Below, in pieces: positions 19,874 to 45,942 of a stretch of DNA of 51,553 nucleotides (position 1 is its first letter; each line of letters begins with the position of its first letter). The stretch is from assembly GCA_947574085.1 (NCBI GenBank), contig CANPIH010000001.1, forward strand, positions 1 through 51,553. The letters are read 5' to 3'. The DNA is from an uncultured Mycoplasmatota bacterium (GTDB lineage: Bacteria; Bacillota_I; Bacilli_A; RF39; UBA660). A model generated the notes under the pieces. That model ran no database searches and was not told the origin of the DNA. It saw only the letters and a list, made by a program, of their open reading frames with translations. The position numbers and the translations under genes were made by a program.

Positions 19874-19988
19874 AATACATTCCTCCAACTTATATGTAAA
19901 ATAATTTGTTTTTAAATTTCCATTTTATTTTACTATATAATTTATTTTTTCGCAATTGAATTATTTTCATAAATGGCTTAAATTAAAA

Positions 19989-22956: not shown

Positions 22957-22977
22957 ACAATTCACCTACTTAATTTG

Positions 22978-24762
22978 TTATAGACCTCCACCTGATCCAA
23001 AAGAATCTAATTCTTCTTGTGTAACTATAACATTAATACGCATTCTTCTATTACCACAAATAAATAGTGCTTCCCCTTGATTGTAATACTTGATGCTTTC
23101 TATTTCTGCATCATTTAAATCTATTAATTTTGATAAATCCTCTGTAGCTTGTTTACGGAGACCCATAATCAAATAATAAGAGGCATTATCAAAAATAGCT
23201 TTTCCATGAACCAAAACATTTGGTGCCGCAAAGTCAGTTGGCTGTTGAGTAATAATAATGGTTCCAGTGTTGTATTTACGACTACGTCTTTGAATTTGGG
23301 CTAAGAATTCAGCACCTAATTCATTACGAGTTGATAACAGTACATGTGCTTCATCCACACACATTACAGTATCCAATTCTTTGTCCAAACATAAACCCCA
23401 AGCGTATTTTAAAATATTAAAGAATAAAGCATTTTTAATATTTTCATCACTATTCATAAGCTCACGAATATTAAATACAATAAAATCACTTTCAATGTGT
23501 AAAGTTGTATGCCCAGTGAAATAATATTTTAATTCTTTTACAAGTGGTCTTACCTTTAATTCTAAACGCTCCATAACATCTTTTTCATGTGTTTTATCTG
23601 GCATGGACAAAAGTCTACCTTTAATAGTCGCATATACATCATCAAACGTTGGATAATCTTCACTATTTAGTTTAGTATAATCTGTATCGTAATCAATTTT
23701 ATAACGTTTATAAGTATCTTGAACAACTTCACTAAACATCGTTAATACATCTTCTTCAATTGAAGGAGAATAATATTTCATAAATGCTTTTAGTTGTTGT
23801 AATGTTCGAGTAAGAACAGTGTAACCTAATCCTTGTTCTATTTCTTCTTCATCAGCATCGACAACAATTTCTAAGGGATTGATCATACCAAACTCCCCAC
23901 CTTTTCCAAGGTCTAAAAAATCTCCACCAATGCTTCTAGTCATTTCAGCAAGTTCTCCTTCTGGATCAATACAAACAACTTTGTACCCATTTCTTAAATG
24001 ACCTCGAATTAATAGCTTTGCTGCTGTAGACTTACCACTACCGCTTGTTCCTAAAATAATCATATTGGCATTGTTACGATTGTTTTCTTTTTTTATCTTA
24101 TACAAAAATTGATTAAATAAAACAACACCACCAGAGAAATCCACACCAAATAAAATACTATTTCCAGGGTCTTTTACGCTATCAAAAATAAAAGGATACA
24201 TAGCAGCAACAGTCACAGATGGAATTGGTGTTCCTACTCGATTTTCTACATCTTGTTTTGGAAAAATAGGCAAAATTGATTTCAGCACTTTTTCTTGTTC
24301 AAACATCAATGGTATTCCACGCATTCCCATACCTTCCAAAAAGTTACGAACTTGCATTTTCTTCATTTCCAATTCTTCTTTATTATTTGCAGAAATAAAT
24401 AAATGCATTTGAAAATCAAAAATTCTTGCTTGAGTTGCTGCAAGCATTTGAATGAATTGTTCTAAAGATTCGTAATCTTGACGTATTCTTTCTTGAAAAG
24501 TTTTATCATTTTCTGTTTGATATCTTTGTTTTAAATCCGCTATTTCTTTATTTAGCATTCTTTGTAATGTAGAAAAAGCAATTGGAATATGTTTAATAGC
24601 AACTTTTACACCTGATATATTTGTAATATTTGCTAAGTAACCTTCTGCAATATATTTTGGAAAAGTAACTATAGTTAAAATGGTACAATACCTTCCACTG
24701 ATTACCATTTCTGTAGGTTTAAATTCAATCCCCTTTGGGGCTAATTGAGCTTTTATATTCAT
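22978..24762 (-). CDS. VirB4-family T4SS ATPase, C-terminal (ATPase) part
   Basis: Walker A ILGTSGSGKST, Walker B VMCVDEAHVLL, RRSRKYNTGTIIITQQPTDF. Only 594 aa; the N-terminal domain is encoded by the upstream ORF. Confidence 0.9.
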   Translation of the reverse strand: MNIKAQLAPKGIEFKPTEMVISGRYCTILTIVTFPKYIAEGYLANITNISGVKVAIKHIPIAFSTLQRMLNKEIADLKQRYQTENDKTFQERIRQDYESLEQFIQMLAATQARIFDFQMHLFISANNKEELEMKKMQVRNFLEGMGMRGIPLMFEQEKVLKSILPIFPKQDVENRVGTPIPSVTVAAMYPFIFDSVKDPGNSILFGVDFSGGVVLFNQFLYKIKKENNRNNANMIILGTSGSGKSTAAKLLIRGHLRNGYKVVCIDPEGELAEMTRSIGGDFLDLGKGGEFGMINPLEIVVDADEEEIEQGLGYTVLTRTLQQLKAFMKYYSPSIEEDVLTMFSEVVQDTYKRYKIDYDTDYTKLNSEDYPTFDDVYATIKGRLLSMPDKTHEKDVMERLELKVRPLVKELKYYFTGHTTLHIESDFIVFNIRELMNSDENIKNALFFNILKYAWGLCLDKELDTVMCVDEAHVLLSTRNELGAEFLAQIQRRSRKYNTGTIIITQQPTDFAAPNVLVHGKAIFDNASYYLIMGLRKQATEDLSKLIDLNDAEIESIKYYNQGEALFICGNRRMRINVIVTQEELDSFGSGGGL

Positions 24763-25316
24763 TCTGGCATCACCGTTCCTAACGTAGTAGCTTGTCCTCC
24801 ATTGAAGAAATTATCAATTAGCATTCTTAAGTCATTATTAGAAACTTGAGAAGAATTAAGCTTGCATGTTGATAAATTATTAATTAAATTATGAATACGT
24901 TTTTGAACAATTTCCAATTTTTTCTCTTTAAACAATATAAAATACTCGGTATCCACCACATTGTATTCTTGACTCATAAACATATTAGCTTTATTGATAT
25001 CTTGCATAATTAGTTTTCTTATAGCAGAACTATTTGAATTGTTATATAAAACTTGCAAGTGTGATAAATGAACATTTATATCTACTGGGCGATCAGCGAC
25101 AATCAGCCAAAATTCATAATCCATTGTATTATAAAAATTTCTTAAATTATAAATAACATTGTTTTGTGTGTCTTGATCCAAAATAAAAATGTTTTTAGGA
25201 GCAACTTTTACACCTGTAACGTATTCTCCTGAATCCAATTGAATCATTCCATTCATAATTTGCTTAATTGGCACCCAATCCTCTGTAAATTTACTTGTTA
25301 CTTTACTCTTTGCCAT
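24759..25316 (-). CDS. VirB4 N-terminal-domain protein (separate ORF, ATGA overlap with the ATPase part)
   Basis: FTEDWVPIKQIMNGMIQLDSGEYVTGVKVAPKNIFILD resembles the N-terminus of Gram-positive VirB4 proteins. The stop TGA overlaps the next ATG (24759-24762). Start placed at the ATG at 25316, because the track start is a TTG. Confidence 0.6.
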   Translation of the reverse strand: MAKSKVTSKFTEDWVPIKQIMNGMIQLDSGEYVTGVKVAPKNIFILDQDTQNNVIYNLRNFYNTMDYEFWLIVADRPVDINVHLSHLQVLYNNSNSSAIRKLIMQDINKANMFMSQEYNVVDTEYFILFKEKKLEIVQKRIHNLINNLSTCKLNSSQVSNNDLRMLIDNFFNGGQATTLGTVMPE

Positions 25317-25617
25317 CGTTGATACACCAGCCTTTCCAATACAATCTTTTTCTACCAAATACAAATAGAAATATATTTGTCAATAATTGTAACACATTAT
25401 GATAATTTGGAACAGGCATAACTAAAAATGCAGACAACAAGGCTGGCGATAAAATTAATAGTAAAGTACCCATTTCCACTTTATTATTAAATAGAAACAA
25501 TAAAGATAATGTTACAGTACACCCTACCCCAAAGATAATTAAATCAATGGGTGTAAAAAACCCCAAGATTAACATTGATTTTTTTGAATTTGCTGGTATT
25601 AAATAATTATGATTCAT
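25303..25617 (-). CDS. PrgI/VirB3-like small membrane protein
   Basis: 104 aa with two TM segments, starting MNHNYLIPANSKKSMLILGFFTPIDLIIFGV. It sits immediately upstream of VirB4, as VirB3/PrgI genes do. Confidence 0.6.
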   Translation of the reverse strand: MNHNYLIPANSKKSMLILGFFTPIDLIIFGVGCTVTLSLLFLFNNKVEMGTLLLILSPALLSAFLVMPVPNYHNVLQLLTNIFLFVFGRKRLYWKGWCINDGKE

Positions 25618-26199: not shown

Positions 26200-28353
26200 C
26201 TAACTTTTATTTTTTGATTCTTCTTGATATTTTTTAGCTACTTCCGAATCTATAGTTCTTGAAGCACTTTTAATTGCTTCGTTACATGTTTTATCAAACA
26301 TGTTTCGTATATTATCAGAACTAATAAAATCATATATTTGTTGTTCACTATTATTAACGGCTTGTTTTATAAAATTATTTAAAGAAGCATTAATAGTTGC
26401 ATTCGTTGTATCTGCATAATCTGCAATGGCTTTAGCGTTTTGAAATGATTTTGTTCTAAAATCCGTAATTAGACTTTGTAATTGAGCATCATAAGCGGAA
26501 TCAAAGTCTTCGGATTTAATTTTAGCATTTGGATTTGCACTTGCTAAGTTATAACCAGCCAAAATATCTTTCTTCATAGCTTCTTTCATATCAAACTCTG
26601 CTTTTGCCATTTTAGTTAACATACTTCCAGTTACACTTGCTCCAGCACTTGTTTTACCAGTAGATTTCATAATTTCCATTTCGTTTAATAAATCCGCATA
26701 ATTATTAAAACCTGCTCCAGGGGCTGTAACACCTTCTACATCAAATCGGGTTCGACTCGTAAGTTTATTTTTATCTCTAGATAATATGGCATCTAAACGA
26801 TCATTTATAGCTTTTCTAGCGTCTTTTACTTCATTAACTTTTGTTTGTTCTTTCTTCAGAATCTCTAAACCAGCTCGCATCCCAGAAAATTGAGAGAATT
26901 TTCTTGCAAAATCTTGAACATGTCCTATAGTAACGTCGGCTATGTTATTTCCATAATTCGCACGATACGCTTCTCTTTCATCTCTAGATTGTAATGAAGC
27001 TGCTGCTCCTTGCGATGCAGCTTTTTTAACATCGGCATATGTTTTAGCAGAAAAACCAGCCTTTGCACTTCGAGCAGCTCCACTAATAAATCCTCCCATC
27101 GTACTAATTGGTGTCTTAATTCCTTCTTTAAGAGTATTAAGTTTTCCATTAGCTCCAATTGTTTTTAAAGCACCATGGGTTAAATTGTTAACGCCCGTTT
27201 TTATACCACCACCAAGCATAGAAGCAATGCCAAACGCACCATTGGCTACCAATTTATTGCGAATACCCAATTTAATTTTTCCAGAATCAATTCCTAATGT
27301 ATCACTCAATAACTTTGGAGCTTGTTTGGCAAAAGCAAATAAGCCAAGTATAACGATTGCATTTCCTAATAATCCTATATTACTGTTAACTAAATAAACT
27401 TCACCTTTTACAATAGCTGAGATAATAAAAACAATCAAATACATAATAAACAATCGAATAAAAACTTCCATAAAAGCATAGATTATTCCTTTTAACCAAT
27501 TATCAAAAACAGATTTTTTCTCTGGAATAATACGCATCAATATAGGAATGGGGGCAATAATCTGGTAAAAAGCAAGTTTTACCACCCGAATTCCTAAATC
27601 TAAACAAAAAGATAGTAAAACATAGGCTAAAAAAGCTCCACAGATGGTTCCTATAATTGGAATATAATCTACTTCTCCTTTATGAACTGGTTCAGCAAAA
27701 TCAGTTATTTTTAAAAAACCTTCTGATGCACCATTAGCTACACCTATTTTAAATTCATCCCATGTTAAAGAAGAAAGCCCCTCCATAGGTGAATTATCTG
27801 GGTTTAAAAAAGCATTTAACACACTTAAAGCTGCAACATTACCGTATCCAGATACCATTCCTATTTGATTTTCAGTAGTATTGTTTGAAGAATATTTCTT
27901 AACTTCATCTGTTCCTAAAATCAATGTATCAATAATATGATCATTAATTACTGCTTCTTGAATTTGAAAAATATAAGAAAATAGTAAAGGTACTATTCCA
28001 ATTAAAACTAAAGAAATAACTGAATTGGTAGCAATTTTACCAATATTTTTGTTGAAATCATCTGGATTTATCATTGTTTTTAAGAGCGAATAAGCCAAAT
28101 AAAACAACATCATAACACCAATAATAACATAAAAACGATTCACTATAGCTTGATAAGTTTCTTGCGGTATTATTCTTACTCCTGCAAGAGCTTCAAAAAT
28201 TGCAAACAATTTACTAACAATCCAATAGACCAAACCGTCTAAAAATAAAAATATACCACTCAAGCCATATTTTCCAACATCAAAAATATTGACAACTTTA
28301 AATTTTTCTAAAATAAGAGGAGCAACAGGAACTAGTAAATCCAAAAATAACAT
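26200..28353 (-). CDS. VirB6/TrbL-like polytopic membrane protein with a large C-terminal soluble extension
   Basis: Start at the ATG at 28353 (RBS AAGGAG). There are at least 6 hydrophobic segments in the first ~400 aa, then an A/K/S-rich ~330-aa tail. Size and position match ConG/TcpH-type components. Confidence 0.6.
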   Translation of the reverse strand: MLFLDLLVPVAPLILEKFKVVNIFDVGKYGLSGIFLFLDGLVYWIVSKLFAIFEALAGVRIIPQETYQAIVNRFYVIIGVMMLFYLAYSLLKTMINPDDFNKNIGKIATNSVISLVLIGIVPLLFSYIFQIQEAVINDHIIDTLILGTDEVKKYSSNNTTENQIGMVSGYGNVAALSVLNAFLNPDNSPMEGLSSLTWDEFKIGVANGASEGFLKITDFAEPVHKGEVDYIPIIGTICGAFLAYVLLSFCLDLGIRVVKLAFYQIIAPIPILMRIIPEKKSVFDNWLKGIIYAFMEVFIRLFIMYLIVFIISAIVKGEVYLVNSNIGLLGNAIVILGLFAFAKQAPKLLSDTLGIDSGKIKLGIRNKLVANGAFGIASMLGGGIKTGVNNLTHGALKTIGANGKLNTLKEGIKTPISTMGGFISGAARSAKAGFSAKTYADVKKAASQGAAASLQSRDEREAYRANYGNNIADVTIGHVQDFARKFSQFSGMRAGLEILKKEQTKVNEVKDARKAINDRLDAILSRDKNKLTSRTRFDVEGVTAPGAGFNNYADLLNEMEIMKSTGKTSAGASVTGSMLTKMAKAEFDMKEAMKKDILAGYNLASANPNAKIKSEDFDSAYDAQLQSLITDFRTKSFQNAKAIADYADTTNATINASLNNFIKQAVNNSEQQIYDFISSDNIRNMFDKTCNEAIKSASRTIDSEVAKKYQEESKNKS

Positions 28354-28367
28354 AAAAATTCTCCTTT

Positions 28368-29078
28368 CTAGCCAAGAGCACAAACTCCAAATTCAATTCC
28401 AGCTATTTTTAATAAAAATTCTATTACAGTCGGCAATAAAAATATAAATATGCCAATAATTAACCTTTTAATTAGTTTATTGCCCGCTTTTTTCAAATCA
28501 TCTTGATTTTGAGAGGCTAAAGCCTTTATAAAATCCATAATAGCAAATCCTGCAATTAAAATAGGAATTAAAAATTTAATAATATTAAATATTTGGTCTA
28601 AAATTTTACCAAATTTGCCACTAAAAATCGAATCACATTTTAAATTATCTTGCACAGGATTCTCTGTAGTTGAATTGTCTTTTTCTATAAGAGTTAAAAT
28701 TCCGCTTTCAGCGTCGTCTCGATAAGAAATCATTTGTGTTGCTGTATCAGTACTATCCGCAGCAGCCACTTCTATTTTATTAAAATACACAATATGTCGA
28801 AAGCATTCTTTATGATTACTAAAATAGTCTTTTGCGTTAAAAATAACAGACTTCCCCCAATTTGAAATATCAATTCTTTTATTATTATCCGATACAACTT
28901 TACAATGAGCTGAATTATCGGAATAAAAACATGTCATGGATACATCCTCTGTTATTTGTTTTCCATACAATGTATATGTATAGTTTCCTTTATAATCACA
29001 AGATAAATCTGCTTTTGCTTCCACATTTTTATACCCTATGCAAAAAAGGAAACCAATCAAAATAAATATTTTTCTCAT
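28368..29078 (-). CDS. Secreted Cys-containing domain fused to a VirB2/TrbC-like TM hairpin
   Basis: Signal peptide MRKIFILIGFLFCIGYKNVEA. C-terminal hairpin KFLIPILIAGFAIMDFIKALASQNQDDLKKAGNKLIKRLIIGIFIFLLPTVIEFL. Confidence 0.55.
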   Translation of the reverse strand: MRKIFILIGFLFCIGYKNVEAKADLSCDYKGNYTYTLYGKQITEDVSMTCFYSDNSAHCKVVSDNNKRIDISNWGKSVIFNAKDYFSNHKECFRHIVYFNKIEVAAADSTDTATQMISYRDDAESGILTLIEKDNSTTENPVQDNLKCDSIFSGKFGKILDQIFNIIKFLIPILIAGFAIMDFIKALASQNQDDLKKAGNKLIKRLIIGIFIFLLPTVIEFLLKIAGIEFGVCALG

Positions 29079-29145
29079 TATTTACACCTACTTATCAGTT
29101 ACATATTAAATGATTATATCATAATACCAATTTAAATGAAATGAA

Positions 29146-30282
29146 TTAATCTTTTGATATCTTACATTTACTAGGACTAGATATACAAGTTTGACAATCC
29201 TTAAAAGAAATTCCTTTTTTATTTACTAAACTAAAAGCAAAATCAATGATGGTAGGAATTAAAAATATGATAACTCCTGCTATAATTCTTGTTATTAAAG
29301 ATTTTGTTGATTTAGCAATCGCCTCTGTATCAGAAGAAGTCATTGCTTTTACAAAATCAATTGTCCCTAAAGCAATTAATAGTAAAGGTATTAGTAGTTT
29401 AACCACCCATAACATATAACCTATAAAACGAAAAACTTTTTTGGCATCATTATTTTTACAAATAGGAGCAAAATTTCCTTCTATAATTTCATTTGTTTTT
29501 TTACAGTCAATATTGGCATTATTAGGATAATTACATTCACCTGAACAAAAATACTCTATTGACTCATAATCGTCTCCACATATAAAGTTATTTTGGGTTG
29601 GATCGTAATTATTGTGTGTTCCTATATATTGAAAGTAATCATAATTTGCATACATAAATTTCTGAGTTCTAGTATTATAAAATATATCACCACAACTAGA
29701 AGATAAATAAGTAGACAAATCAGCATATTTATATTTTCCATTTGGATAATATATAATATAAGTTCCTTTTTCTTTTTTAATCGTCAATTTACCACTAGGT
29801 CCTGTATAAACACATTCCCAAATTTCCTCTTCAGTTGATGTTTGTGATCCATTGCATTTTCCTTCACATGTACTTTTTGATGTATCTAAATTATAATAAT
29901 ATTTATCTCGCTCATCTGGATTTGGTTCATTGCTAAAATTAATCACTTTTCCTGTTGCTCTTTCTTTTACAATATATACAGGACAATCAAAATTCCCTTC
30001 ATCATACATAAAATGATATTTGTGTAAATTTTCATTACTTGCTTCTTGAAACAAATCAAAATCTCCTACTCCAAATTCAATATTACCATTCTCATCTAAA
30101 GAAGCACGGTCAATAATAATATAATCTCCACTATAATAAGAACAATATAATTTAAGTGTGTTATCATTTGGAGTTTCACTTTCTATAATCTCTACTCCAT
30201 GAATAGTTTTTTTTGCAAAAGTATTCGAACAAAATAAAAGCATAGAAATCAATAGTAAAACAATATAGCTAATTTTTTTCAT
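29146..30282 (-). CDS. Secreted Cys-rich domain (~300 aa) fused to a VirB2/TrbC-like TM hairpin
   Basis: Start at the ATG at 30282 (RBS GGAGAGAG). Signal peptide MKKISYIVLLLISMLLFCSNTFA. Hairpin KLLIPLLLIALGTIDFVKAMTSSDTEAIAKSTKSLITRIIAGVIIFLIPTIIDFA. Tail CQTCISSPSKCK. Confidence 0.55.
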   Translation of the reverse strand: MKKISYIVLLLISMLLFCSNTFAKKTIHGVEIIESETPNDNTLKLYCSYYSGDYIIIDRASLDENGNIEFGVGDFDLFQEASNENLHKYHFMYDEGNFDCPVYIVKERATGKVINFSNEPNPDERDKYYYNLDTSKSTCEGKCNGSQTSTEEEIWECVYTGPSGKLTIKKEKGTYIIYYPNGKYKYADLSTYLSSSCGDIFYNTRTQKFMYANYDYFQYIGTHNNYDPTQNNFICGDDYESIEYFCSGECNYPNNANIDCKKTNEIIEGNFAPICKNNDAKKVFRFIGYMLWVVKLLIPLLLIALGTIDFVKAMTSSDTEAIAKSTKSLITRIIAGVIIFLIPTIIDFAFSLVNKKGISFKDCQTCISSPSKCKISKD

Positions 30283-30353
30283 AATCTCTCTCCAATATTT
30301 CTTATTAACATTATAACAATTTATAAGCAAAATAAAAAGGCAAAATTTTAATT

Positions 30354-31463
30354 TTACCTTATTACATATGGATTTTCTCTTGTTCCATTTCCACTTTTGT
30401 ATAAAATTCCATTTTTAAGAGCAATAACAAACCTTAAATCCGCACTGTAAGAAGTATTATCGGAATCAATTTCTCCATAGGTACTAATGCTAAAAGCAGA
30501 ATAAGTATTGACCATATTTCCAGTCATTGTCCACCATCTTGAATCTTCATTTACAAAATAATTATAATTTTGACACTCTTTACTAATTGAGGTTTGACAC
30601 ATGGCATCTAAACTAGCATTCATATAATCATAAAGAGGTAACAAACCAATTTCTTGATTTTGTATCTTTTCATTACATTCCAATCTTCCACTTTTATCAG
30701 TACTATCGTTCAATCTTTTTCCAACACATAAATCAAATTTTGTTAAATATTCTTCGTATTTTTTATATTTTGTATCATAAACTTTTTTTGAAAAAATAAG
30801 TACTCTACTTAAATTAAAATTATTTATTCCGTAATTAGAGTTTGCCTCTGTATTGTAACGATCATCCCATACACTATAAAGATCATTGTCTTCTGTTTCT
30901 GTTAATATTATTTGAATTGTATTGTTATTATCTATTTTTACAATTCGCCATATTTCATCAGCAATACTAACGTAATTATTCGGATTTTGTCCACGAAAAA
31001 CAAGCTCATTATTCATTTCATAGAGACCCTCACCAGTTTGAGAGATTTTATTATTTTCTTTAATTTTATCTACAAATTTTTCAGTTTTAAATTCTTTACA
31101 TGTCAAATATGCTTGATAGCTATAATCGTTATTTACAAAATCAACCATAATATTAGCAGTACAGGAAGAATCTTTCACATATTTTTTTAACTCTTTTATA
31201 TATTTTTGTTCTATTAGAGTAGAACTATTTACAACAATTGTTGGATTATTAGCATTTGGCAAATAATTCGGATTTTCACTCAAATATCTATAAGTAGCCG
31301 TCTCTAAAATTTCCTCTAAATTTTCATAGGAAATTTTAATACCTACAAATTTTACTGCTACAGAAATAGAAATAATAATTAATAGCATAACCAAAGCAAT
31401 ACTTCCAAATAAAGTAGCTTTTTGCTTATTACTGTTTATCCATCCCTTTATTTTTTCTATCAT
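30354..31463 (-). CDS. N-terminally anchored extracytoplasmic protein
   Basis: Single TM (ATLFGSIALVMLLIIISISVAV), then a soluble region with ..YVSIADEIWRIVKIDNNNTIQII.. that ends GNGTRENPYVIR. Function unknown. Confidence 0.45.
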   Translation of the reverse strand: MIEKIKGWINSNKQKATLFGSIALVMLLIIISISVAVKFVGIKISYENLEEILETATYRYLSENPNYLPNANNPTIVVNSSTLIEQKYIKELKKYVKDSSCTANIMVDFVNNDYSYQAYLTCKEFKTEKFVDKIKENNKISQTGEGLYEMNNELVFRGQNPNNYVSIADEIWRIVKIDNNNTIQIILTETEDNDLYSVWDDRYNTEANSNYGINNFNLSRVLIFSKKVYDTKYKKYEEYLTKFDLCVGKRLNDSTDKSGRLECNEKIQNQEIGLLPLYDYMNASLDAMCQTSISKECQNYNYFVNEDSRWWTMTGNMVNTYSAFSISTYGEIDSDNTSYSADLRFVIALKNGILYKSGNGTRENPYVIR

Positions 31464-31521
31464 ATGCTATCACCTTAAAAAAATCATAACATAGGAGCAA
31501 AAAAAAAGCAATTTACATCGC

Positions 31522-31902
31522 TTATTTATTTTCCTTATTCCAAAGTGTATCTGCTTCATTGCACTTTGAAGGACTTACAATACACTTTTGACATACAGCA
31601 TAATCTTTTTTAGCTGTTTCATTAAAACCACCTATTAATGTCATAACATAAGATATAATAGTAGGAAGTAAGAAAATAATAATTCCAGCAATAGCTCTTC
31701 TAATTAAAGAACTAGTTGCTTTTTTAATTTCATCCTCTTTACTAGCAATAACAGCCTTTCCTAAATCAATCATACCAAAAACAATTAATAAAATTGGAAT
31801 TGCAATTTTAAACACTAATAATACATACCCTACAATTTGCCAAATGTTTGCTGTTTTGCTACAAAAATTTATATCCGTAAGCATTGTTAAAAATAAATCC
31901 AT
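31522..31902 (-). CDS. Stand-alone VirB2/TrbC-like pilin-type hairpin protein
   Basis: KIAIPILLIVFGMIDLGKAVIASKEDEIKKATSSLIRRAIAGIIIFLLPTIISYV with tail CQKCIVSPSKCN. Start placed at the ATG at 31902, 7 nt after GAGAGAGAGG. The track start at 31908 is too close to the RBS. Confidence 0.55.
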   Translation of the reverse strand: MDLFLTMLTDINFCSKTANIWQIVGYVLLVFKIAIPILLIVFGMIDLGKAVIASKEDEIKKATSSLIRRAIAGIIIFLLPTIISYVMTLIGGFNETAKKDYAVCQKCIVSPSKCNEADTLWNKENK

Positions 31903-31932: not shown

Positions 31933-31961
31933 ATTCTAAACACAATTTTTAATATTGTCAA
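31933..31961 (-). promoter_or_regulatory. Sigma-A-type promoter ahead of the T4SS half of the array
   Basis: On the minus strand: TTGACA (31961-31956), 17-nt spacer, TAGAAT (31938-31933). Confidence 0.55.
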
Positions 31962-32039: not shown

Positions 32040-33035
32040 TTACTTGAAAATACTAAACAATTTATTATTTTTTGTCTCTTCTCCAACTGTTTCTTCAAAA
32101 CGAGCAAAACCCAACTTTATTAAAAATTCTTCTATCACTTTTTGATTATCCAATTTATCATCTAAGTTAGGAATATTAAAGAAAACTTTACTTTTAGATT
32201 CGTATTCAAAATCTTTAACATCTCTAGGATTTAAAATGCTTCGATTTAAAACAATCTTTTTATCACATAATTTTTCAAAAGTACGTTTATCTTTACGAAT
32301 TAATTTATTTAATTTAATTAAACCTGGTTCAATCAAATAAATCACTTCAGTACAAGCACTAATACTTCCTCGGTCATTTAAATCGACCAACATCACTTCA
32401 ACTTCACTGTTTGTAGCAATAAACGCTGGTAAATCCAGACTAGATGTTGTTTTAAGCGTTTTATCATTAAAATAAATAAAATCGTGTTCATCTACTTCTA
32501 CTGCTAAAACATTATATTTTTTTGCTAATTCTTTCTTTAGTAAATATGTCAAAGTAGTGGAACCAGCATGATTGGTCACATTTTTTATACCAATAACTCT
32601 TAATCCAATTTTATTATATCCCCCTTCATTTGAAGAATCTATAGTGGTAACATTGTTTAATTGATGAAATTGGGCAACATCTTTATACGTATTTGGATTA
32701 TCAATTAAGAATTTAATAGCATCAACATTTCTTGTAAAATTATAAATTCCCATAGAAATTAAACTTGATAAATACTTTGGTGAATTTACTATTTCAGAAT
32801 CATCCAAAAGAAGAATAATATTACTTACATCCATACTTACAGATAAACTTTGAAACGTAGAAACTTCTTGGTAATTTCTTAAAGCTGTAACATCCAAAAT
32901 CATTTTATTATAATAAAAATTAGTAAATTGATTGACTAAGTCCTCTACTTCAAATTCTCCATTAATATTTTTAATAATATCAATATCTAATGTTGAGAGT
33001 AGAGATTGATACTTATTGGAAACAATTACATTCAT
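32040..33035 (-). CDS. TadZ/CpaE-like protein (pseudo-receiver + MinD/ParA-like domain with a degenerate Walker A)
   Basis: N-terminal CheY-like pattern (MNVIVSN...MILDVTAL...IILLLDD). C-terminal VIGIKNVTNHAGSTTLTYLL occupies the place of KGGxGKT. It sits in a Tad locus. Confidence 0.5.
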   Translation of the reverse strand: MNVIVSNKYQSLLSTLDIDIIKNINGEFEVEDLVNQFTNFYYNKMILDVTALRNYQEVSTFQSLSVSMDVSNIILLLDDSEIVNSPKYLSSLISMGIYNFTRNVDAIKFLIDNPNTYKDVAQFHQLNNVTTIDSSNEGGYNKIGLRVIGIKNVTNHAGSTTLTYLLKKELAKKYNVLAVEVDEHDFIYFNDKTLKTTSSLDLPAFIATNSEVEVMLVDLNDRGSISACTEVIYLIEPGLIKLNKLIRKDKRTFEKLCDKKIVLNRSILNPRDVKDFEYESKSKVFFNIPNLDDKLDNQKVIEEFLIKLGFARFEETVGEETKNNKLFSIFK

Positions 33036-33553
33036 TTCTTTTCCTCCTTTTTTATTATTTTTAAAGTGTCTCCTGGATGGATAATATTTCCAGTACTGCC
33101 ATTTACATCAAATTTAAAAATATCTCCTAATATAGGTAAATTAAAATATAAAAATAAATTCACTTTATAATAAACTTGCCCTTCCTCTTTATAGTTTTCT
33201 CCATTTGCCATTACACTTTTGCTCATCTTAGTTACACAGTAATAATAATTATTTTTATTCTCTTTGGTTACTTCTGTTAAAGTTGCTGAATCTAAACTAC
33301 GTACACCATAACTTCCTTCAGGACATCTTTTTGTTACTCTATAATTATTGTTTTTTAAATAATTGTTTATAATCTGTATACTGCCATTTTCTTTATCTGT
33401 CAATCCTTCGTATTTTTCTATAATGGTTAGGACTTCATTTTTCATTTTAAATGCTTTTGTGTAATTTAAAGATAAAGCTAAAAAAGCTACAAACAAAAGC
33501 ATAAATATTATAACTAATTGGGTTAACCAAGTTCCTCCTATCGCCTCTCTCAT
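33032..33553 (-). CDS. Pseudopilin / TadE-like minor pilin candidate
   Basis: MREAIGGTWLTQLVIIFMLLFVAFLAL leader plus TM, then a ~140-aa domain. Paralogous to the upstream gene. ATGA overlap with the downstream gene. Confidence 0.45.
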   Translation of the reverse strand: MREAIGGTWLTQLVIIFMLLFVAFLALSLNYTKAFKMKNEVLTIIEKYEGLTDKENGSIQIINNYLKNNNYRVTKRCPEGSYGVRSLDSATLTEVTKENKNNYYYCVTKMSKSVMANGENYKEEGQVYYKVNLFLYFNLPILGDIFKFDVNGSTGNIIHPGDTLKIIKKEEKK

Positions 33554-33557
33554 GTTA

Positions 33558-34163
33558 TCAACCTCCTATTATTGGGCCAGATACAGTACTACAATCAATC
33601 AAAGGTCCAATAGGTTTTCCATTTTCGTATTTTTGACATAGATTATTTTTTTTACGATAATAACCATTTGTATATCGCATTACTTTTGTATCCCCTTTAA
33701 TTCTAAATTGAAAAATACTTCTAAAAATAGGTAAATCTAATTGATAAAATACCACAATACGATAATAACTAGCATCAGGTAAATCCCCTTCGCTTTTATC
33801 TGTTGTTACACTTTGTTTAGCAATACAAAAAGAGGGATTATTTTCTACTATTTTTCCTTCGCGATTATAGCCAATATAGTGGGTAATAACTTTTCCACTT
33901 TTATCAGTAATATCTAAACTTTTACAGTCTCCTGTTGTTCTATACGAAGTTTTATTTAAGTAATCAACAATGTCTTTAATCGCTTGATCTCCCATTGGAT
34001 TTTCTAAATTTACTCCCTTTTCTCGTTCTATAGCTTTTACAATTTCATTTTTTACATTAAATGCCTTGGAATGATTAATTGACAAACATATATACCCTGT
34101 AAAAAGCAATACAAAAAATATTACGATTTGGAATATCCAAGTTCCACCAATTGCCTCTCTCAC
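33558..34163 (-). CDS. Pseudopilin / TadE-like minor pilin candidate
   Basis: MREAIGGTWIFQIVIFFVLLFTGYICL; shares its N-terminus and ..FK.KNE.. with ORF 33032..33553. Confidence 0.45.
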   Translation of the reverse strand: MREAIGGTWIFQIVIFFVLLFTGYICLSINHSKAFNVKNEIVKAIEREKGVNLENPMGDQAIKDIVDYLNKTSYRTTGDCKSLDITDKSGKVITHYIGYNREGKIVENNPSFCIAKQSVTTDKSEGDLPDASYYRIVVFYQLDLPIFRSIFQFRIKGDTKVMRYTNGYYRKKNNLCQKYENGKPIGPLIDCSTVSGPIIGG

Positions 34164-34176
34164 ATGACCACCTCAA

Positions 34177-34419
34177 TTAACCTTTCCAAACGCATTTAAA
34201 AGAATTTCCTTGTTTATTACCATTCTTATCATAATATGCACAAGTAACCATTCCATTGTTTAACGTTTTTTTATCACAAATCGCATCACTACATCGATTT
34301 GTAGAAATATAAGTATTTTTAATACTAGGCCATAAAACCCCAAAGAAAAAGACCGATAGGAATCCTACCGCTACAACAATCACGACAGTTATATTTAATT
34401 CTCCTGTGGCCTCTTTCAT
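34177..34419 (-). CDS. Small pilin-like protein (copy 2)
   Basis: 80 aa: MKEATGELNITVVIVVAVGFLSVFFFGVLWPSIKN, then a Cys-containing variable C-terminus. Confidence 0.55.
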   Translation of the reverse strand: MKEATGELNITVVIVVAVGFLSVFFFGVLWPSIKNTYISTNRCSDAICDKKTLNNGMVTCAYYDKNGNKQGNSFKCVWKG

Positions 34420-34440
34420 ATATTTTTAACTCCTTTTATT

Positions 34441-34719
34441 TTATTTAGCTTGACTAGTTCCATTTTCAAAACTGCATTTTCCAGACCATGCCTTTTGACC
34501 AGTAGTGTCGTCTGCATCAACCCTACAAGAAGTACAAACTGTTTTAGATTTGTCTGTATTACAACTTGCTTGGTCACAAGTAGCCATTGCACAATATGTG
34601 GAAGCAGTTATACTATTTTTTATATTTGGCCAAATAAACGCATAGAAGAATGCCGCTACTGCTGCTATTGCTACTACTGTTACAACAGTCATATTTAATT
34701 CTCCAGTTGCCTCTTTCAT
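34441..34719 (-). CDS. Small pilin-like protein (copy 1)
   Basis: Start moved to the ATG at 34719 (RBS GAGGAGGAA). MKEATGELNMTVVTVVAIAAVAAFFYAFIWPNIKN, then a Cys-rich variable C-terminus. Confidence 0.55.
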   Translation of the reverse strand: MKEATGELNMTVVTVVAIAAVAAFFYAFIWPNIKNSITASTYCAMATCDQASCNTDKSKTVCTSCRVDADDTTGQKAWSGKCSFENGTSQAK

Positions 34720-34775
34720 TTTATAAATTCCTCCTCTTTCATTTGAGTAGGATTGGTAGTAGCAAGCAGTAGCGT

Positions 34776-34925
34776 CTATGTTTCTTTTAAACAGTTTTTC
34801 AAACAATCACTAGACACGTTATCATTTTCTACTGGACATTGTGCTTCACAAGTATTTTTTTTAATACTAACTTGAATACTTGGCCATATAAACGCATATA
34901 AGAATGTCGCTACTGCTACTATCCC
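34776..34925 (-). pseudogene. 5'-truncated third pilin copy
   Basis: The minus-strand frame reads ..GIVAVATFLYAFIWPSIQVSIKKNTCEAQCPVENDNVSSDCLKNCLKET*. The nucleotide sequence is clearly homologous to copy 1 across the TM-coding part and diverges at about 34922. There is no start codon or MKEATGELN leader in frame. Confidence 0.55.
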
Positions 34926-35038
34926 AACCCTTACCCTGTTACTTTTATTATAAACTTTTTTTAGTTTATTATCAATTCTTTATTACTTATTTGACTATTT
35001 CTAGTCATCATCAAAAAAATCCCTTTTTCTTGCTTGTT

Positions 35039-35067
35039 ATTATATCAAGATAATACTTATAAGTCAA
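35039..35067 (-). promoter_or_regulatory. Near-consensus sigma-A promoter ahead of the pilin genes
   Basis: On the minus strand: TTGACT (35067-35062), exactly 17 nt, TATAAT (35044-35039). Confidence 0.65.
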
Positions 35068-35170
35068 AAATAACTTATACAACGCATTTAAAGAAACAGA
35101 ATGATTAAACTTTCTTGGTTTCTAATTCAAATAGGCACTTTTAAAAAAAGAATAAGTTTTATTCCTATTC

Positions 35171-35959
35171 TTACATCCCCATCAGCATTAATACTGCAAA
35201 TATCAAAAGAATCATAACTCCAAGACCAGTTGTAATCAACATACTCATCGTTTTGGATTCCATTTTTTCTAATCTTTCCTTATATTTTGTTTCTCTTGCT
35301 TTTTGTTGTAAATTTGAAATCGTTTTGGAAAAAGCTAGCAATTGTTCTTGCTTATGCTCTTGACGTCCTAAGCTTAAACGATACAATAAACGCATCATAC
35401 GCATAGAATCTCTTACAGGATATTCTCTAGCAAAATTTACATAAGGTTCTATAGTATTGTTACCAGCATTGATCTCATTAATCAATTCTTGCAATCCCTC
35501 TCTAAATATAGGAGGAGCATCATTAATAGATTTTCCCAAAGCTACTGGCACTGTATAATGTTGAATAAGAATTTCTAAACTTTTTAAATAATGTGGCAAC
35601 ATAGAATTGATTTCGTGTAAGTGTGCTTTATAATATTTTTTTATATTCAAATAATCCAATTTAAAAACTAAAAAACCACCTAGAAAACAAAACAATACTG
35701 TTACATAATTCAATTTCGAAATCAAGCAAAATACTAAAACTATAATAGTAATTAATCCATTACGAATTCTTTTATTAAATAAAATATCACTATTTACACC
35801 TTCTCCATATTTTGCTTTTACATAAAAATCCCAATCGTCTTCTTTTAATTTACGGAAATAAACTTCATTATCTCTAATAAAACGATTTGTACTAATGCGT
35901 CCAGTGTAGTTCATAATGTAAAGGAAAATAACTCCAATAATTACAATTTCTATTGCCAT
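35171..35959 (-). CDS. TadC-like platform protein (T2SS-F family)
   Basis: 262 aa with TM segments at both ends flanking a cytoplasmic helical domain (LPHYLKSLEILIQHYTVPVALGKSINDAPPIFREGLQEL). Paired with the upstream paralog next to the TadA ATPase. Confidence 0.65.
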   Translation of the reverse strand: MAIEIVIIGVIFLYIMNYTGRISTNRFIRDNEVYFRKLKEDDWDFYVKAKYGEGVNSDILFNKRIRNGLITIIVLVFCLISKLNYVTVLFCFLGGFLVFKLDYLNIKKYYKAHLHEINSMLPHYLKSLEILIQHYTVPVALGKSINDAPPIFREGLQELINEINAGNNTIEPYVNFAREYPVRDSMRMMRLLYRLSLGRQEHKQEQLLAFSKTISNLQQKARETKYKERLEKMESKTMSMLITTGLGVMILLIFAVLMLMGM

Positions 35960-35960
35960 A

Positions 35961-36854
35961 TTATTCTACCCCCACATCATCGTTATAATATTTTTCTCCA
36001 CTTATAAGAAAGAAACAGTTGATCCAAATGATGGCGTGCAAAACAAGTTTTACATACCAAATATCGAGAAGTTCAATATAACTATCTGTACCTAGCAAAA
36101 ACTGCATGGCCATTACAAGTAAAAATAAGGCAAGTCCAAATGTAATAAAACGTTTGTGAAAATTTTTACGATCTGCTTGATCACGATATACACCTTCTAC
36201 CAGTGCATCAATGTCCTGAGACATATTTTCTAAAGCTTCTCCAGAATCTTTAGCCCCTTCTTTCGTTATTTGTAAAAAAAGTTGATTCATATTTTTTACC
36301 ATATAGAAGGGATATTTTTCATTAAAGAAATCAATAGATTCGTCAATCGTTCCATTTTGATAAGACATTTCTATCATTATTTTTACATCTTGTAAAACAG
36401 GATCCTCCAAAATTCCAGAATCTCTTACTCCTTCTAGACTTTTTACATAACTTTGAGTTGTAGTAAATTCCATTATTACATTGGTTGTATAAATTTGAAT
36501 TTGTTCAAATATAAATTCACTGTAAATTTTTTGATATCTTAAATATGCCAAATAAGGGATAAAAGCAATAGATGCAAGTACATAAAAAATAACCGCTAGA
36601 ATATTGTAAAAGTAAAGATAAGAAATTCCACCAGCAATAACAGCAAATAAAATTACTTGACTAGTATATTGACGTACTGTAAATTCTTGTCCTAATGATT
36701 TTACTTTTTCTCTTACTTCTTTATAACTATAGGGAGCAAATTTGTCGTATGTATCTTTTACTTGTGTTATAAAGAATCGATAAACATTTTCTCCATTGTT
36801 TTGACGATAAGAGACAACATAAATCCCTATAATCCATAAAATGATTAATTCCAT
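35961..36854 (-). CDS. TadB-like platform protein (T2SS-F family)
   Basis: 297 aa with the same TM-helical domain-TM layout. 1-nt gap to the next gene. Confidence 0.65.
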   Translation of the reverse strand: MELIILWIIGIYVVSYRQNNGENVYRFFITQVKDTYDKFAPYSYKEVREKVKSLGQEFTVRQYTSQVILFAVIAGGISYLYFYNILAVIFYVLASIAFIPYLAYLRYQKIYSEFIFEQIQIYTTNVIMEFTTTQSYVKSLEGVRDSGILEDPVLQDVKIMIEMSYQNGTIDESIDFFNEKYPFYMVKNMNQLFLQITKEGAKDSGEALENMSQDIDALVEGVYRDQADRKNFHKRFITFGLALFLLVMAMQFLLGTDSYIELLDIWYVKLVLHAIIWINCFFLISGEKYYNDDVGVE

Positions 36855-36871
36855 TTTTTTGCACCTACTTT

Positions 36872-38032
36872 CTAAATAACCTCTGTATTTGTCATTCTTG
36901 GCATACTATAAGTACTTGTATTCATAGTTGTAGTACTTGATTGTAATTTTGTAGCTGAAGCAGAAACATTATCATTATTTGTCCTAAAAATATTTTCTGG
37001 TACCATAACACCTTGAATAGCTAAATAATCTTTTAAATGTTTAGTTGGGTTTTTTAAAGCTAATTTTCCATCCATTGTTTTTTGATAAATGATATTCACT
37101 TGTGGCTTATTTTCCTCATCTACATAAAACTCACATATTTCCATAATTTCTCTTTGAAATCTTCCTAGTTCTTTGCTCATATATCCTTTTACATAAACTC
37201 CAATTTGAATATAGCGATGAATAGTAGTTAAAAATTGCTCAACATCCTGATTAGATTCCAACAAACTATACATACGCATAGGTATACTACTGGCTTTATC
37301 TGAGTGAATAGTTGATAAAATGTGATGCCCAGAAGAAATTGAATTACGTATTGCAAGTACAGCCTCAGCACTACGAACTTCAGACAATAATATCCAAATT
37401 GGATTTTGACGCATACAGGTAACCAAAACCTCTGAATAAGAAGCAATATTATTGGTTTTCATAGCCACTATATCTCTATGAGGAAAAATTCGATCCAAAT
37501 GAAGCTCTAATGTATCTTCAATTGTTATAATTTTTTCATCCTCTTTTGTAGTACCCGCCAAATATTTAACCAACTCTGTTTTTCCAGAACCTGTTTCTCC
37601 GCTTACTATAATATTCGCATGTCCTTTTACACATTGTAACAAAAAATCCAATAAATCTTCTGAAACGTATTTCTCATTAATTAATTTTTCTTTATTCAAA
37701 CGAATTTTTGCTGGAGTTTTACGAATCAAACAAGCAATTCCATTGGTAGCAATAGAATCATGTATAAAATTCAAACGCAATTCTGTAGATTCAGCATCTA
37801 AAAAAGGATGAGCCATATTGAAAGTCTTCCCCATAACATTTGAACATTGAAAAGCCAATTTTTCCATAAGGTTATTATTAATCTCTGGTCTTTCCACTTT
37901 ATAAACACCACGAGAAAGTGTCTTAACCCATACTTGTCCACCATTACTATAGGAAATATCTGTTACATCATCTACTCGTAAAAATTCTTCTAAAGGACCA
38001 AAGTCCAATTGAGAAAATATTGAATCATCCAT
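36872..38032 (-). CDS. TadA/CpaF-type secretion ATPase (T2SS-E / VirB11 superfamily)
   Basis: Walker A VSGETGSGKTE, Walker B-like MRQNPIWILLSEVR, His box GHHILSTIHS. Confidence 0.9.
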   Translation of the reverse strand: MDDSIFSQLDFGPLEEFLRVDDVTDISYSNGGQVWVKTLSRGVYKVERPEINNNLMEKLAFQCSNVMGKTFNMAHPFLDAESTELRLNFIHDSIATNGIACLIRKTPAKIRLNKEKLINEKYVSEDLLDFLLQCVKGHANIIVSGETGSGKTELVKYLAGTTKEDEKIITIEDTLELHLDRIFPHRDIVAMKTNNIASYSEVLVTCMRQNPIWILLSEVRSAEAVLAIRNSISSGHHILSTIHSDKASSIPMRMYSLLESNQDVEQFLTTIHRYIQIGVYVKGYMSKELGRFQREIMEICEFYVDEENKPQVNIIYQKTMDGKLALKNPTKHLKDYLAIQGVMVPENIFRTNNDNVSASATKLQSSTTTMNTSTYSMPRMTNTEVI

Positions 38033-38063
38033 TTCTAGACACCCTCTTTATCATCTTTTTTTG

Positions 38064-38903: not shown

Positions 38904-38915
38904 TTTTCATTCCTC

Positions 38916-39338: not shown

Positions 39339-39355
39339 TAGTTATTCACCTCTTT

Positions 39356-43131: not shown

Positions 43132-43249
43132 GGGAAAATTTGCTTTAAATAAAGGATCTCAAAGTAATCAAACAAACAAAATAATAAACAAAAAATAAAT
43201 CGACTTTAAAATTTTTACAATCTATGTTATATTTTAAATGGTGATTGTA

Positions 43250-45360: not shown

Positions 45361-45384
45361 AAAAAAAAAGACCATTAAGGTCTT
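45361..45384 (-). terminator. Rho-independent terminator between convergent genes
   Basis: aagacc (45368-45373) pairs with ggtctt (45379-45384). An A9 run on the + strand gives a T-run after the hairpin on the minus strand. Confidence 0.55.
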
Positions 45385-45823: not shown

Positions 45824-45942
45824 ATCATTCACCCTTTCCTGTATTCTCATTAATAATTTATGATAGTTTAAAAAAATAGTTCTTAAATTCAAAAAGGTTT
45901 TAAAAATTCTTAATTTGTTGTATAATTTTAGTAGGTGATATT

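Follow-up and report, generated by a model that had tools for sequence, protein, structure and literature searches.

Until late 2025 the type IV secretion systems (T4SSs) of monoderm bacteria were thought to lack VirB2 pilins. In Patescibacteria, 441 VirB2-like arrays of 2–11 genes with a mean identity of 25% were found with PF18895 or PF04956 (PMC12102498); a six-gene array of Southlakia epibionticum has been reviewed, and the conjugative-pilus potential of Patescibacteria was termed unique among monoderms (PMC12857230). In December 2025, PrgF_B2 of pCF10 was presented as a pilin of VirB2-like type, and candidates for such proteins were listed for most Gram-positive plasmids, the criteria of ter Beek et al. 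being a length of 50–150 aa, two transmembrane (TM) segments, a charged cytoplasmic loop and a gene near virB6 (bioRxiv 10.64898/2025.12.18.695078). Here, three paralogous genes (copies a, b and c) are described from contig CANPIH010000001.1 of assembly GCA_947574085.1 (positions 1 to 51,553 of the forward strand, 51,553 nucleotides, hereafter the window), a low-GC contig (approximately 27% guanine plus cytosine) of an uncultured gut member of the Bacilli whose relatives are RF39-type metagenome-assembled genomes (MAGs). They lie in a chromosomal type IV secretion locus in which no relaxase was found within the window. Our preferred, though tentative, reading is that they form an array of PF18895-type (VirB2-like) pilin-family proteins belonging to this T4SS, with one bare subunit and two ectodomain-bearing minor or tip subunits, which would place the same pilin family, again as an array, in an abundant, uncultured gut lineage of Bacillota.

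The locus is like the Patescibacteria arrays in the Pfam family involved, in its tandem, divergent paralogues (2–11 there, 1–8 here), in its chromosomal, monoderm, FATA-type T4SS, mostly without relaxase, in reduced-genome and host- or community-dependent organisms, and in that a type IV-pilus-class system is also involved. It is unlike them, as far as their published description allows comparison, in host lineage (Bacillota, RF39-type), in the fusion of most extra paralogues to a signal peptide and a variable ectodomain of 60–500 aa, in a predicted conserved disulfide staple, and in the physical fusion of the locus to a Tad/VirB11-like operon. Like PrgF_B2, copy a is small and has two TM segments joined by a short charged loop, predicted to be cytoplasmic; its gene set adjoins a VirB6-like gene, and it falls within the limits of ter Beek et al.; unlike in that case, no sequence similarity to PrgF_B2 is detectable and PLSDB plasmids hold no homologue of copy a. 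The screen of ter Beek et al., limited to 50–150 aa, would have missed fused proteins like b and c. The pilus model for PrgF_B2 is backed by genetics and labelling, whereas the system described here is known from sequence alone.

With the classical pilins VirB2, TrbC and TraA the copies share a hairpin topology, a loop that would face the lumen, outward termini and a gene 5′ of virB3/virB4. No sequence or Foldseek similarity connects them, copy a has no long cleaved leader, and the monoderm envelope of the host, together with the absence of VirB5, VirB7, VirB9 and VirB10 genes, sets the locus apart from classical systems. Classical pilins also have no large N-terminal domains, unlike copies b and c; the original prediction for this stretch had pointed out this difference, and the comparison supports it. 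Its further remark that pilin-like subunits are unusual in Gram-positive T4SSs is outdated in view of the Patescibacteria arrays (PMC12102498) and PrgF of pCF10 (bioRxiv 10.64898/2025.12.18.695078). In Mycoplasma integrative and conjugative elements (ICEs) the same order is seen of a pilin-like gene (Mbov_0395), a gene for a polytopic TM protein (Mbov_0396) and VirB4 (Mbov_0397). Copy b matches Mbov_0395 at E 1.6e-3, the VirB6-like protein of the window Mbov_0396 at E 8e-7 and the N-terminal part of VirB4 Mbov_0397 at E 6e-16, all far under the NCBIfam cut-offs. The Mycoplasma proteins differ in being ICE-borne, and the Mbov_0395 family, with a model of 80 positions, appears to be small and devoid of ectodomains. 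The pilin-like gene is thus not new in kind, since Patescibacteria arrays and PrgF_B2-type proteins had already been reported; in the literature consulted on such pilins, the RF39-type lineage, the widespread signal-peptide/ectodomain fusion, the cysteine staple and the coupling to Tad/VirB11-like genes are not described.

Three paralogues with a common predicted hairpin

Three open reading frames (ORFs) ending in the same unit had been reported, and all three are present on the minus strand, with products of 126 (a), 378 (b) and 236 aa (c; table 1). The paralogous part is the C-terminal approximately 85–100 aa, hereafter the module. In BLASTP comparisons, copies a and b were 47% identical over 97 aa (E 1.5e-20), a and c 37% over 75 aa (E 1.3e-16), and b and c 39% over 71 aa (E 1.9e-15), which bears out the shared unit at E values of 1e-15 to 1e-20. 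No further ORF of the window matched the three copies at E < 1e-3, and a hidden Markov model (HMM) of the module retrieved exactly copies a, b and c among the window ORFs. The proposed motif extends to the modules of relatives: across 225 unique homologous modules it reads K-x3-P-x3-I-x5-D-x2-KA ... K ... R-x7-F-x2-P, and the signature residues K17, P21, D31, K34, A35, K46, R54, F62 and P65 are as well preserved in fused as in bare modules. The cysteine-containing tail that two of the copies were said to have in common was found in a (CQKCIVSPSKC) and b (CQTCISSPSKC).

Hydropathy gave two TM segments in each module around a charged turn (4–6 K/R versus 3–4 D/E), in agreement with the earlier layout of TM, short polar loop, TM, and signal-peptide-like N-terminal segments in copies b and c. 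The AlphaFold2 (AF2) model of copy a is an antiparallel helical hairpin with helices at residues 18–53 and 56–90 (predicted local distance difference test, pLDDT, 78). For copy b (pLDDT 88), AF2 predicted two beta-rich domains, a small Cys-rich helical region and a long hairpin of helices 278–315 and 319–354 (38 + 36 residues). Foldseek searches with the copy b model against PDB and BFVD gave best E values of 0.039 and 0.14, the matches being fluorescent proteins and AttH at a TM-score of 0.1; neither database thus holds a comparable fold, and the ectodomain could be given no fold assignment. The fused N-terminal domains carry signal peptides and cysteines, as first described, while their sizes are approximately 130 aa (c) and 250 aa (b) and not 150 and 300 aa. 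Copy a has four cysteines, of which C14 precedes TM1 and C104, C107 and C114 follow TM2; mature copy b has 14 and mature copy c six. Internal repetition of a ‘C-x-Y ... C-P-x-Y’ unit in the copy b ectodomain, a unit suspected to occur in copy c as well, was not supported by hhalign comparison of the two halves (probability 0.4%, six columns).

The Pfam family PF18895 (‘Type IV secretion system pilin’, T4SS_pilin; 71 model positions, gathering score 26.6 bits) was the top Pfam match for each of the three copies and was covered over nearly all of its positions. The scores of 21.4 (a), 19.5 (b) and 20.1 bits (c), with E values of 2.7e-4 to 1e-3, are below the cut-off. Each of 62 close a-type homologues (62/62) matched PF18895 individually at E ≤ 0.01 (best E 1.1e-7), and a profile built from eight modules retrieved 2193 proteins, many with precomputed PF18895 annotation. 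With the exception of the N-terminus of the VirB6-like protein, no PF18895 match came from the approximately 30 further window proteins scanned, among them several polytopic ones. These profile matches support membership of the module in PF18895 at the family level, the individual scores of the window copies being sub-threshold. Weak matches to CagC, the Helicobacter pylori VirB2 homologue, were obtained for copy a (E 0.035) and for 4/62 homologues at E ≤ 0.01, and weak recurrent matches also to the Mycoplasma ICE families Mbov_0395 (‘pilin-like’), Mbov_0396 and MMCAP2_0566. The small size, the two predicted TM helices and the short charged loop expected of a VirB2-type protein are found in copy a; copies b and c have the hairpin and are not small.

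A signal-peptide-like N-terminus was found in 107/109 fused homologues, so the ectodomain and the start of TM1 are expected to lie outside, and the signal peptides of copies b and c strongly imply export by the Sec route. The loop between TM1 and TM2 is net positive. Exactly one cysteine occurs in the 20 aa ahead of the hairpin in 203/225 proteins, mostly 7–9 aa from it, and an odd number (1, 3, 5, 7 and so on) follows TM2 in 223/225; a cysteine just ahead of TM1 together with at least one past TM2 was present in 222/225. The commonest combinations before TM1 and after TM2 were one and three (131 proteins) and one and one (58 proteins), and the hairpin core itself is free of cysteine in 189/225. 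Such a conserved arrangement implies that the two flanks are stapled by disulfide on the oxidizing, outer side of the membrane. Read together, the sequences strongly imply that the termini are outside, that the charged turn is cytoplasmic and that the flanks are joined by one or two disulfides, which is the predicted VirB2 topology of extracytoplasmic termini and cytoplasmic loop. The opposite orientation (loop outside, termini inside), which had been named as incompatible with a VirB2-type pilin, is disfavoured by the signal peptides, the positive loop and the cysteine pattern. T-pilin and RP4 TrbC undergo head-to-tail cyclization, and the flank-to-flank staple may, by analogy, be a functional counterpart of it. 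As a structural prediction the conserved staple is a simple one.

Gene order and divergence in related loci

The three copies belong to a single minus-strand block that spans approximately 17.7 to 43.1 kb of the window. In the direction of transcription the block begins with genes for a 252-aa secreted protein, a 986-aa Cys-rich protein, a DUF5411 protein, a CpaB-like protein and a secretion ATPase, and continues with two TadB/C-like genes, one Flp-like and two TadE-like genes and a 331-aa ParA-like gene before copy a. Copy a is followed by a 369-aa gene, copies b and c, VirB6-like and VirB3-like genes and a split VirB4 gene, and then by a cell-wall hydrolase, a 270-aa protein and a VirD4 coupling protein. 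The order from copy a to VirD4 is repeated in the related loci L001, L002, L004 and L007.

When GTDB species genomes were scanned with a-type sequences, 288 relatives were obtained; the best 80 were analysed as loci (numbered with L) and are biased towards loci that hold an a-type gene, since a-type sequences alone were used for the scan. These best 80 are gut MAGs, assigned to uncultured Bacilli or Tenericutes, Ca. Ventrenecus, Ca. Coprovivens and Anaeroplasma sp.; Ca. Coprovivens belongs to the order RF39, family CAG-1000 (PMC8035907). With the module HMM, 1–8 module genes per locus were counted in the 80 loci. A stand-alone gene of 105–147 aa leads nearly every array (one exception, L069), and the later genes encode proteins of up to 616 aa in which the module is almost always C-terminal. 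The placement of module genes upstream of VirB6/VirB3/VirB4 is strict across dozens of species; a virB6/virB3/virB4 neighbourhood was found in the window and in 43/51 loci with at least 9 kb of downstream sequence.

A word-indexed search gave two homologues of full-length copy b and 17 of c-type proteins, whereas an exhaustive search of representatives with a b-type profile gave 8020 matches at E ≤ 1e-3 and 2118 at E ≤ 1e-10. Approximately 30 clusters have the complete architecture of copy b, and many proteins of 150–575 aa match by the C-terminal module alone. None of the fused homologues checked by cluster look-up was named.

Divergence is distributed very unevenly along the block. In comparisons of the window proteins with those of 15 related loci, identity was 91–96% for VirB4, 84–94% for the Tad A/B/C-like proteins, 79–88% for the ParA-like protein and 71–89% for the VirB3-like protein. 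Copy a is 60–72% identical to its counterparts (45% in L002, which is incomplete and without an a-type gene), and the hairpins of copies b and c 39–67%. The copy b ectodomain is 31–48% identical, or else undetectable or replaced, and that of copy c was undetectable in 12/15 loci. Proteins at orthologous positions can differ in the ectodomain altogether: the b-position protein of L007 has 499 aa with a helical repeat, and the c-position proteins of L001 and L002 have approximately 360 aa. The ectodomains of 109 fused proteins fell into at least 34 similarity clusters, including 21 singletons. The proposal that different ectodomains are displayed on a common anchor fits this picture, in which a single module carries at least 34 clusters of ectodomains and these diverge much more than the core machine does. 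Copy a is the conserved bare subunit, preceded by its own promoter-like site, and the ectodomains of b and c are fast-evolving.

Signals around copy a include, besides the promoter-like site (table 1), a GAGAGG ribosome-binding site ahead of the ATG at 31902, and a weak stem followed by T9 after the stop codon at approximately 31495–31520; all three are matches to a consensus only and no evidence of function.

Possible roles of the hairpin and competing explanations

On the pilin reading, copy a would be the major, abundant subunit, because it comes first in the array, is the most conserved copy, has a near-consensus promoter-like site and is followed by the stem and T9 after its stop codon. 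It would leave the membrane and stack up on the VirB6-like platform, so building a short conduit or pilus that crosses the wall, much as PrgF and PrgH have been proposed to form a wall-crossing conduit (ter Beek et al., bioRxiv 10.64898/2025.12.18.695078). Copies b and c may join the same assembly through the shared hairpin, in few copies or as the first (tip) layer. Because both termini face outward in known pili (ter Beek et al., bioRxiv 10.64898/2025.12.18.695078), geometry would allow a domain fused to the N-terminus; by our own estimate, a domain of 130–250 aa on every subunit would misfit a VirB2-type helical lattice, and b and c are for that reason placed as minor or tip subunits. There they would display variable recognition or adhesion domains, a role held elsewhere by VirB5 or by separate adhesins, and the adjoining Tad/VirB11-like genes might cooperate with the assembly or share subunit a. 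The analogy is with the VirB5 tip protein and with the minor pilins of type IV pili and type II secretion, and concerns the proposed role alone, that of low-copy subunits that enter first. In type IV pili, minor and major pilins have one fold in common, just as the hairpin is common to a, b and c; unlike there, no homology to VirB5 was found, the shared element is a two-helix hairpin and not the type IV pilin helix, and a location at the tip is here proposed by analogy.

Several observations weigh against this reading. The PF18895 scores of the window copies are under the gathering score. Comparison of the module profile with PDB sequences gave just the TM5–loop–TM6 region of rhodopsin and lactate dehydrogenase, both discarded as compositional, and Foldseek with the copy a model against PDB gave generic TM hairpins alone (HtrII, ATP synthase c) at E > 3. 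In hhalign comparisons of the module with TrwL (R388), PrgF (pCF10), TraA and VirB2, probabilities stayed below 3% in all cases (0.8–1.7% for PrgF) and were no better than for the controls AtpE and PrgG, the TrwL and PrgF sequences having been taken from PLSDB and those of TraA and VirB2 entered by hand. A tblastn search of PLSDB plasmids with copy a gave no homologue. No relaxase family was found among approximately 35 window proteins scanned with Pfam or NCBIfam, although a relaxase may lie elsewhere or be of an unrecognized type; the label ‘conjugative’ is for this reason unproven, and of the marks of a conjugative DNA-transfer system looked for in the window (relaxase, coupling protein) only the VirD4 protein was found. 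Incorporation of b and c below stoichiometry or at the tip, on which the model depends, is our supposition. Two further points, the loci in which a Tad-like block stands without VirB6/VirB4 and the compact operons without a Flp-like gene, are taken up below.

The original prediction of a VirB2/TrbC-like hairpin consequently stands as far as PF18895, the T4SS context and the topology go, and is unsupported as regards detectable likeness to a characterized pilin: none was seen to VirB2, TrwL, TraA, TrbC, PrgF or CedA1, the weak CagC matches being the nearest approach. The label ‘VirB2-like’ therefore rests on a bioinformatic family name, on topology and on gene context. As ter Beek et al. note ‘almost non-existing sequence homology’ among VirB2-like proteins (bioRxiv 10.64898/2025.12.18.695078), which diverge so strongly, the missing similarity lowers confidence in membership without excluding it.

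The main rival, somewhat unlikely in our judgement, takes the hairpin as a membrane anchor or docking element that is never extruded. Copies b and c would then be surface proteins docked laterally on a VirB6-like platform, copy a an integral subunit of that platform, and there would be no filament. Such an arrangement accords with the failure to find any likeness to solved pilins, tethered surface proteins might well have bulky ectodomains on polar linkers, and a static anchor would likewise be stabilized by a disulfide staple. The VirB6-like protein may itself begin with a similar hairpin, which would suggest hairpin-to-hairpin packing in a membrane complex: its N-terminal segment gave hhalign probabilities of 81% or 26%, according to the module profile used, and is possibly a very divergent copy of the module, and in L002, L004 and L018 the N-terminal part is a separate ORF of approximately 290 aa. 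If copies a, b and c are pilins, this segment could instead act as a docking template for the pilin layer. The PF18895 assignment and the VirB2-like topology speak for pilins and against a mere anchor, as does the bare copy, which is strongly conserved, leads nearly all arrays and has its own promoter-like site, as expected of an abundant structural subunit. A single TM segment would moreover suffice as a tether, yet 126 fused proteins keep the full hairpin signature.

The second rival, which we regard as improbable, assigns copy a primarily to the Tad/VirB11-like machine, possibly as its fibre subunit, so that b and c alone would be T4SS-specific and two systems would be fused in one locus. 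Its basis is the gene content of the related loci. Among 36 loci complete on both flanks, 24 have, as in the window, the Tad-like block 5′ and the T4SS genes 3′ of the array; seven have a Tad-like block without VirB6/VirB4 within 10 kb, and in five the T4SS genes stand without Tad-like genes within 10 kb (in L030, for example, housekeeping genes precede a). Tad-only status was defined by gene content within 10 kb of the locus, and other contigs of the same MAGs lie outside that range, which tempers its weight. In L053, L076 and L081 the a-type gene stands between the second TadB/C-like gene, which it adjoins, and the housekeeping genes addB/addA; genes of the Flp-like, TadE-like, VirB6 and VirB4 types are absent for 10 kb around. 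The operon there consists of genes for the 250-aa secreted protein, the Cys-rich protein of 1230–1300 aa, DUF5411, the CpaB-like protein, the ATPase, two TadB/C-like proteins and the a-type protein, and L058 and L060 have the same layout by BLAST. In the 20 kb of each of these five compact loci no Flp-like gene was found. As an observation in its own right, in about a dozen related MAGs the a-type gene ends a compact operon of DUF5411, CpaB-like, VirB11/TadA-like ATPase and two TadB/C-like genes (4653–10405 in L053, 5855–10351 in L076, 5802–10417 in L081), at the place expected for the Flp pilin gene.

The number of module genes follows the T4SS. All 43 loci with VirB6/VirB4 downstream (43/43) hold at least two module genes, and of eight loci without VirB6/VirB4 seven hold exactly one and the eighth two; the extra, mostly fused paralogues thus track the T4SS, and the bare subunit occurs with either gene set. 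Because an a-type gene also ends Tad-like operons without nearby T4SS genes, the assignment of copy a to the T4SS is not exclusive, and it may serve the Tad/VirB11-like machine instead. The best scores of the ATPase, to VirB11 and TadA-family models, are in keeping with such a machine. Countering this, the five fully flanked loci mentioned above combine an a-type gene, an array and VirB6/VirB4 with no Tad-like genes in range, pilins of the Tad and type IV kinds have a single helix and a class III signal peptide and are not two-TM hairpins, and the window has Flp-like and TadE-like candidates of its own.

A generic two-TM hairpin unrelated to secretion (of the holin, immunity, entry-exclusion or bacteriocin type) with a misleading Pfam name is highly improbable, for although the Pfam scores are sub-threshold and TM hairpins draw compositional matches (rhodopsin, Frizzled, 7tm_1), the module matched no holin or immunity family in Pfam, NCBIfam and PHROGs scans, so that the high-confidence non-pilin match that would have spoken against the original prediction did not appear, its position 5′ of VirB6/VirB3/VirB4 is strict in dozens of species, its signal peptides, large ectodomains and outside termini misfit the N-in/C-in topology of two-TM holins, and the locus is without phage or toxin context. 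A holin or phage identity was dropped after the PHROGs scan, which gave no match for copies a, b and c or for most of their neighbours.

Returning to the pilin reading, a broader form of it, unlikely to hold in full, would make the VirB2-family hairpin a modular ‘pilin anchor’ of RF39-type Bacilli: a bare, highly conserved subunit of a wall-crossing fibre or conduit, possibly shared between the VirB4/VirB6 T4SS and the VirB11/Tad-like machine, would be accompanied by 1–7 paralogues that mount hypervariable, disulfide-rich ectodomains as tip or minor pilins, with the ectodomains setting partner specificity and the staple replacing cyclization. The chromosomal pilin-array T4SS without relaxase, among monoderms reported so far from Patescibacteria alone, would then extend to a second lineage with reduced genomes. 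Gram-positive systems are not known to have a tip factor of the VirB5 type (ter Beek et al., bioRxiv 10.64898/2025.12.18.695078). Should the fused copies enter the fibre, they would account for partner recognition by a monoderm T4SS and be the first pilins of their class with adhesin domains of their own, and a monoderm system without VirB5 would gain a built-in, exchangeable recognition module. With Tad/VirB11-like genes alongside and no relaxase found in the window, the function could be conjugation or a housekeeping cell-to-cell exchange like that of the device essential in Saccharibacteria.

Neighbouring genes and other features of the window

The positions of the copies and of the surrounding genes are collected in table 1.

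Table 1. Features of the array, its flanking gene blocks and nearby signals, with positions in the window.
Feature	Position (nt)	Strand	Remarks
Copy a, stand-alone putative pilin-family hairpin, 126 aa	31522..31902	−	PF18895 21.4 bits; AF2
Copy a module, residues ~19–117	31552–31848		
Copy b, 378 aa	29146..30282	−	signal peptide 1–23, ~250-aa Cys-rich ectodomain, C-terminal module
Copy b module, residues ~280–374	29161–29445		
Copy c, 236 aa	28368..29078	−	signal peptide 1–21, ~130-aa Cys-containing ectodomain, polar linker, C-terminal module
Copy c module, residues ~154–235	28374–28619		
Sigma-70-like promoter match just 5′ of copy a	31933..31961	−	TTGACA-17-TAGAAT, 11/12; consensus match only
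Conserved bitopic protein between copies a and b, 369 aa	30354..31463	−	N-terminal TM, Cys-containing ectodomain, weak DUF7359, no module
VirB6-like polytopic protein	26200..28383	−	Mbov_0396 ICE TM protein E 8e-7; pLS20_p028 E 9e-5; directly 3′ of copy c
Possible divergent fourth hairpin, residues 74–138 of VirB6-like protein	27970–28164	−	PF18895 21.9 bits
VirB3-like small membrane protein, 104 aa	25303..25617	−	weak TcpE and PrgI matches
VirB4 ATPase, two ORFs	22978..25364	−	VirB4_plasma E 6e-16; Pfam AAA_10, P-loop_TraG, DUF87
Cell-wall hydrolase-like protein (VirB1 analogue), variable domains	20785..22965	−	weak Peptidase_C39_2
VirD4-type coupling protein	17684..19888	−	T4SS-DNA_transf E 2.4e-54; TrwB_AAD_bind; TraG-D_C
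Tad/VirB11-like block	32040..38903	−	5′ of copy a
ParA-like, 331 aa	32040–33035	−	weak CbiA match, E 0.023
Two TadE-like proteins	33032–34163	−	
Flp-like	34441–34806	−	
Two TadB/C-like membrane proteins	35171–36854	−	no T2SSF match
Secretion ATPase	36872–38032	−	T2SSE E 3.9e-26; VirB11 106 bits; TadA-family 100.6 bits
CpaB-like	38064–38903	−	RcpC weak; CpaB E 9e-5
Membrane-anchored thioredoxin-like protein, CSHC (CxxC) motif	43238..43711	+	Thioredoxin_2 E 5.6e-7; flanks block

The 369-aa bitopic protein was found in 22/80 related loci, in the closest clade only and always approximately 0.5 kb after a, with 47–68% identity; it could be an accessory of the VirB8 or VirB5 type. VirB4 is split into a TraC-like N-terminal part of approximately 185–200 aa (24759–25364) and a 594-aa ATPase (22978–24762) with an overlap of a few bases. 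Because the split is kept in L002, L004 and L007, it is not an assembly error. The hydrolase is 34–62% identical among relatives although the adjoining VirB4 is 91–96% identical, and its catalytic domains swap: a Peptidase_C39-like domain is present in the window and in L007 (15915–18116), and Peptidase_M23 with Phage_lysozyme2 in L004 (15789–17903). Between the VirB3-like and VirB6-like genes lies a 180-aa ORF (25649–26191) with a weak match to a transposase family of PHROGs (E 2.4e-4). No tRNA was found by a search of the window and no integrase family among the scanned window proteins, and with neither in evidence there is no sign of recent integration of the block.

The Tad/VirB11-like secretion block (32040–43071 with its opening genes) is joined head-to-tail to the T4SS block. 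Within it, the names TadB/C-, Flp-, TadE- and ParA-like were assigned by size, position, topology and N-terminal motifs, these proteins otherwise having no Pfam or NCBIfam family match. The ATPase scored approximately equally to VirB11, TadA-family and TrbB models, in all cases under the cut-off. Of the components of a Tad (type IVc) system, the ATPase is thus recognized by its T2SSE match and CpaB weakly, T2SSF gave no match, the Flp-like and TadE-like proteins were picked out by eye, and no prepilin peptidase was seen in the window. The very Cys-rich, secreted 986-aa protein (39356–42316) and the secreted, C-terminally anchored 252-aa protein (42313–43071) that open the block had no family match; the versions in relatives have 1230–1300 and approximately 250 aa and stand in the same position. 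The thioredoxin-like protein at the edge of the block is a candidate oxidoreductase for the predicted disulfides of copies a, b and c and of the Flp-like and 986-aa proteins.

Elsewhere in the window, an EcoRI-type adenine methyltransferase (13430–14551) is split into two ORFs, which cover model positions 2–186 and 199–344, and is probably a frameshifted pseudogene. Two adjoining giant paralogues of 1282 and 991 aa (1184–8020) are 35% identical over approximately 1000 aa; they have BspA-type leucine-rich repeats and a common Cys-containing C-terminal region, and a signal peptide is not obvious. A CotZ-like spore-coat protein (45383–45892; E 4.8e-14) hints at sporulation-related genes in what is commonly considered a reduced, Mollicutes-like lineage.

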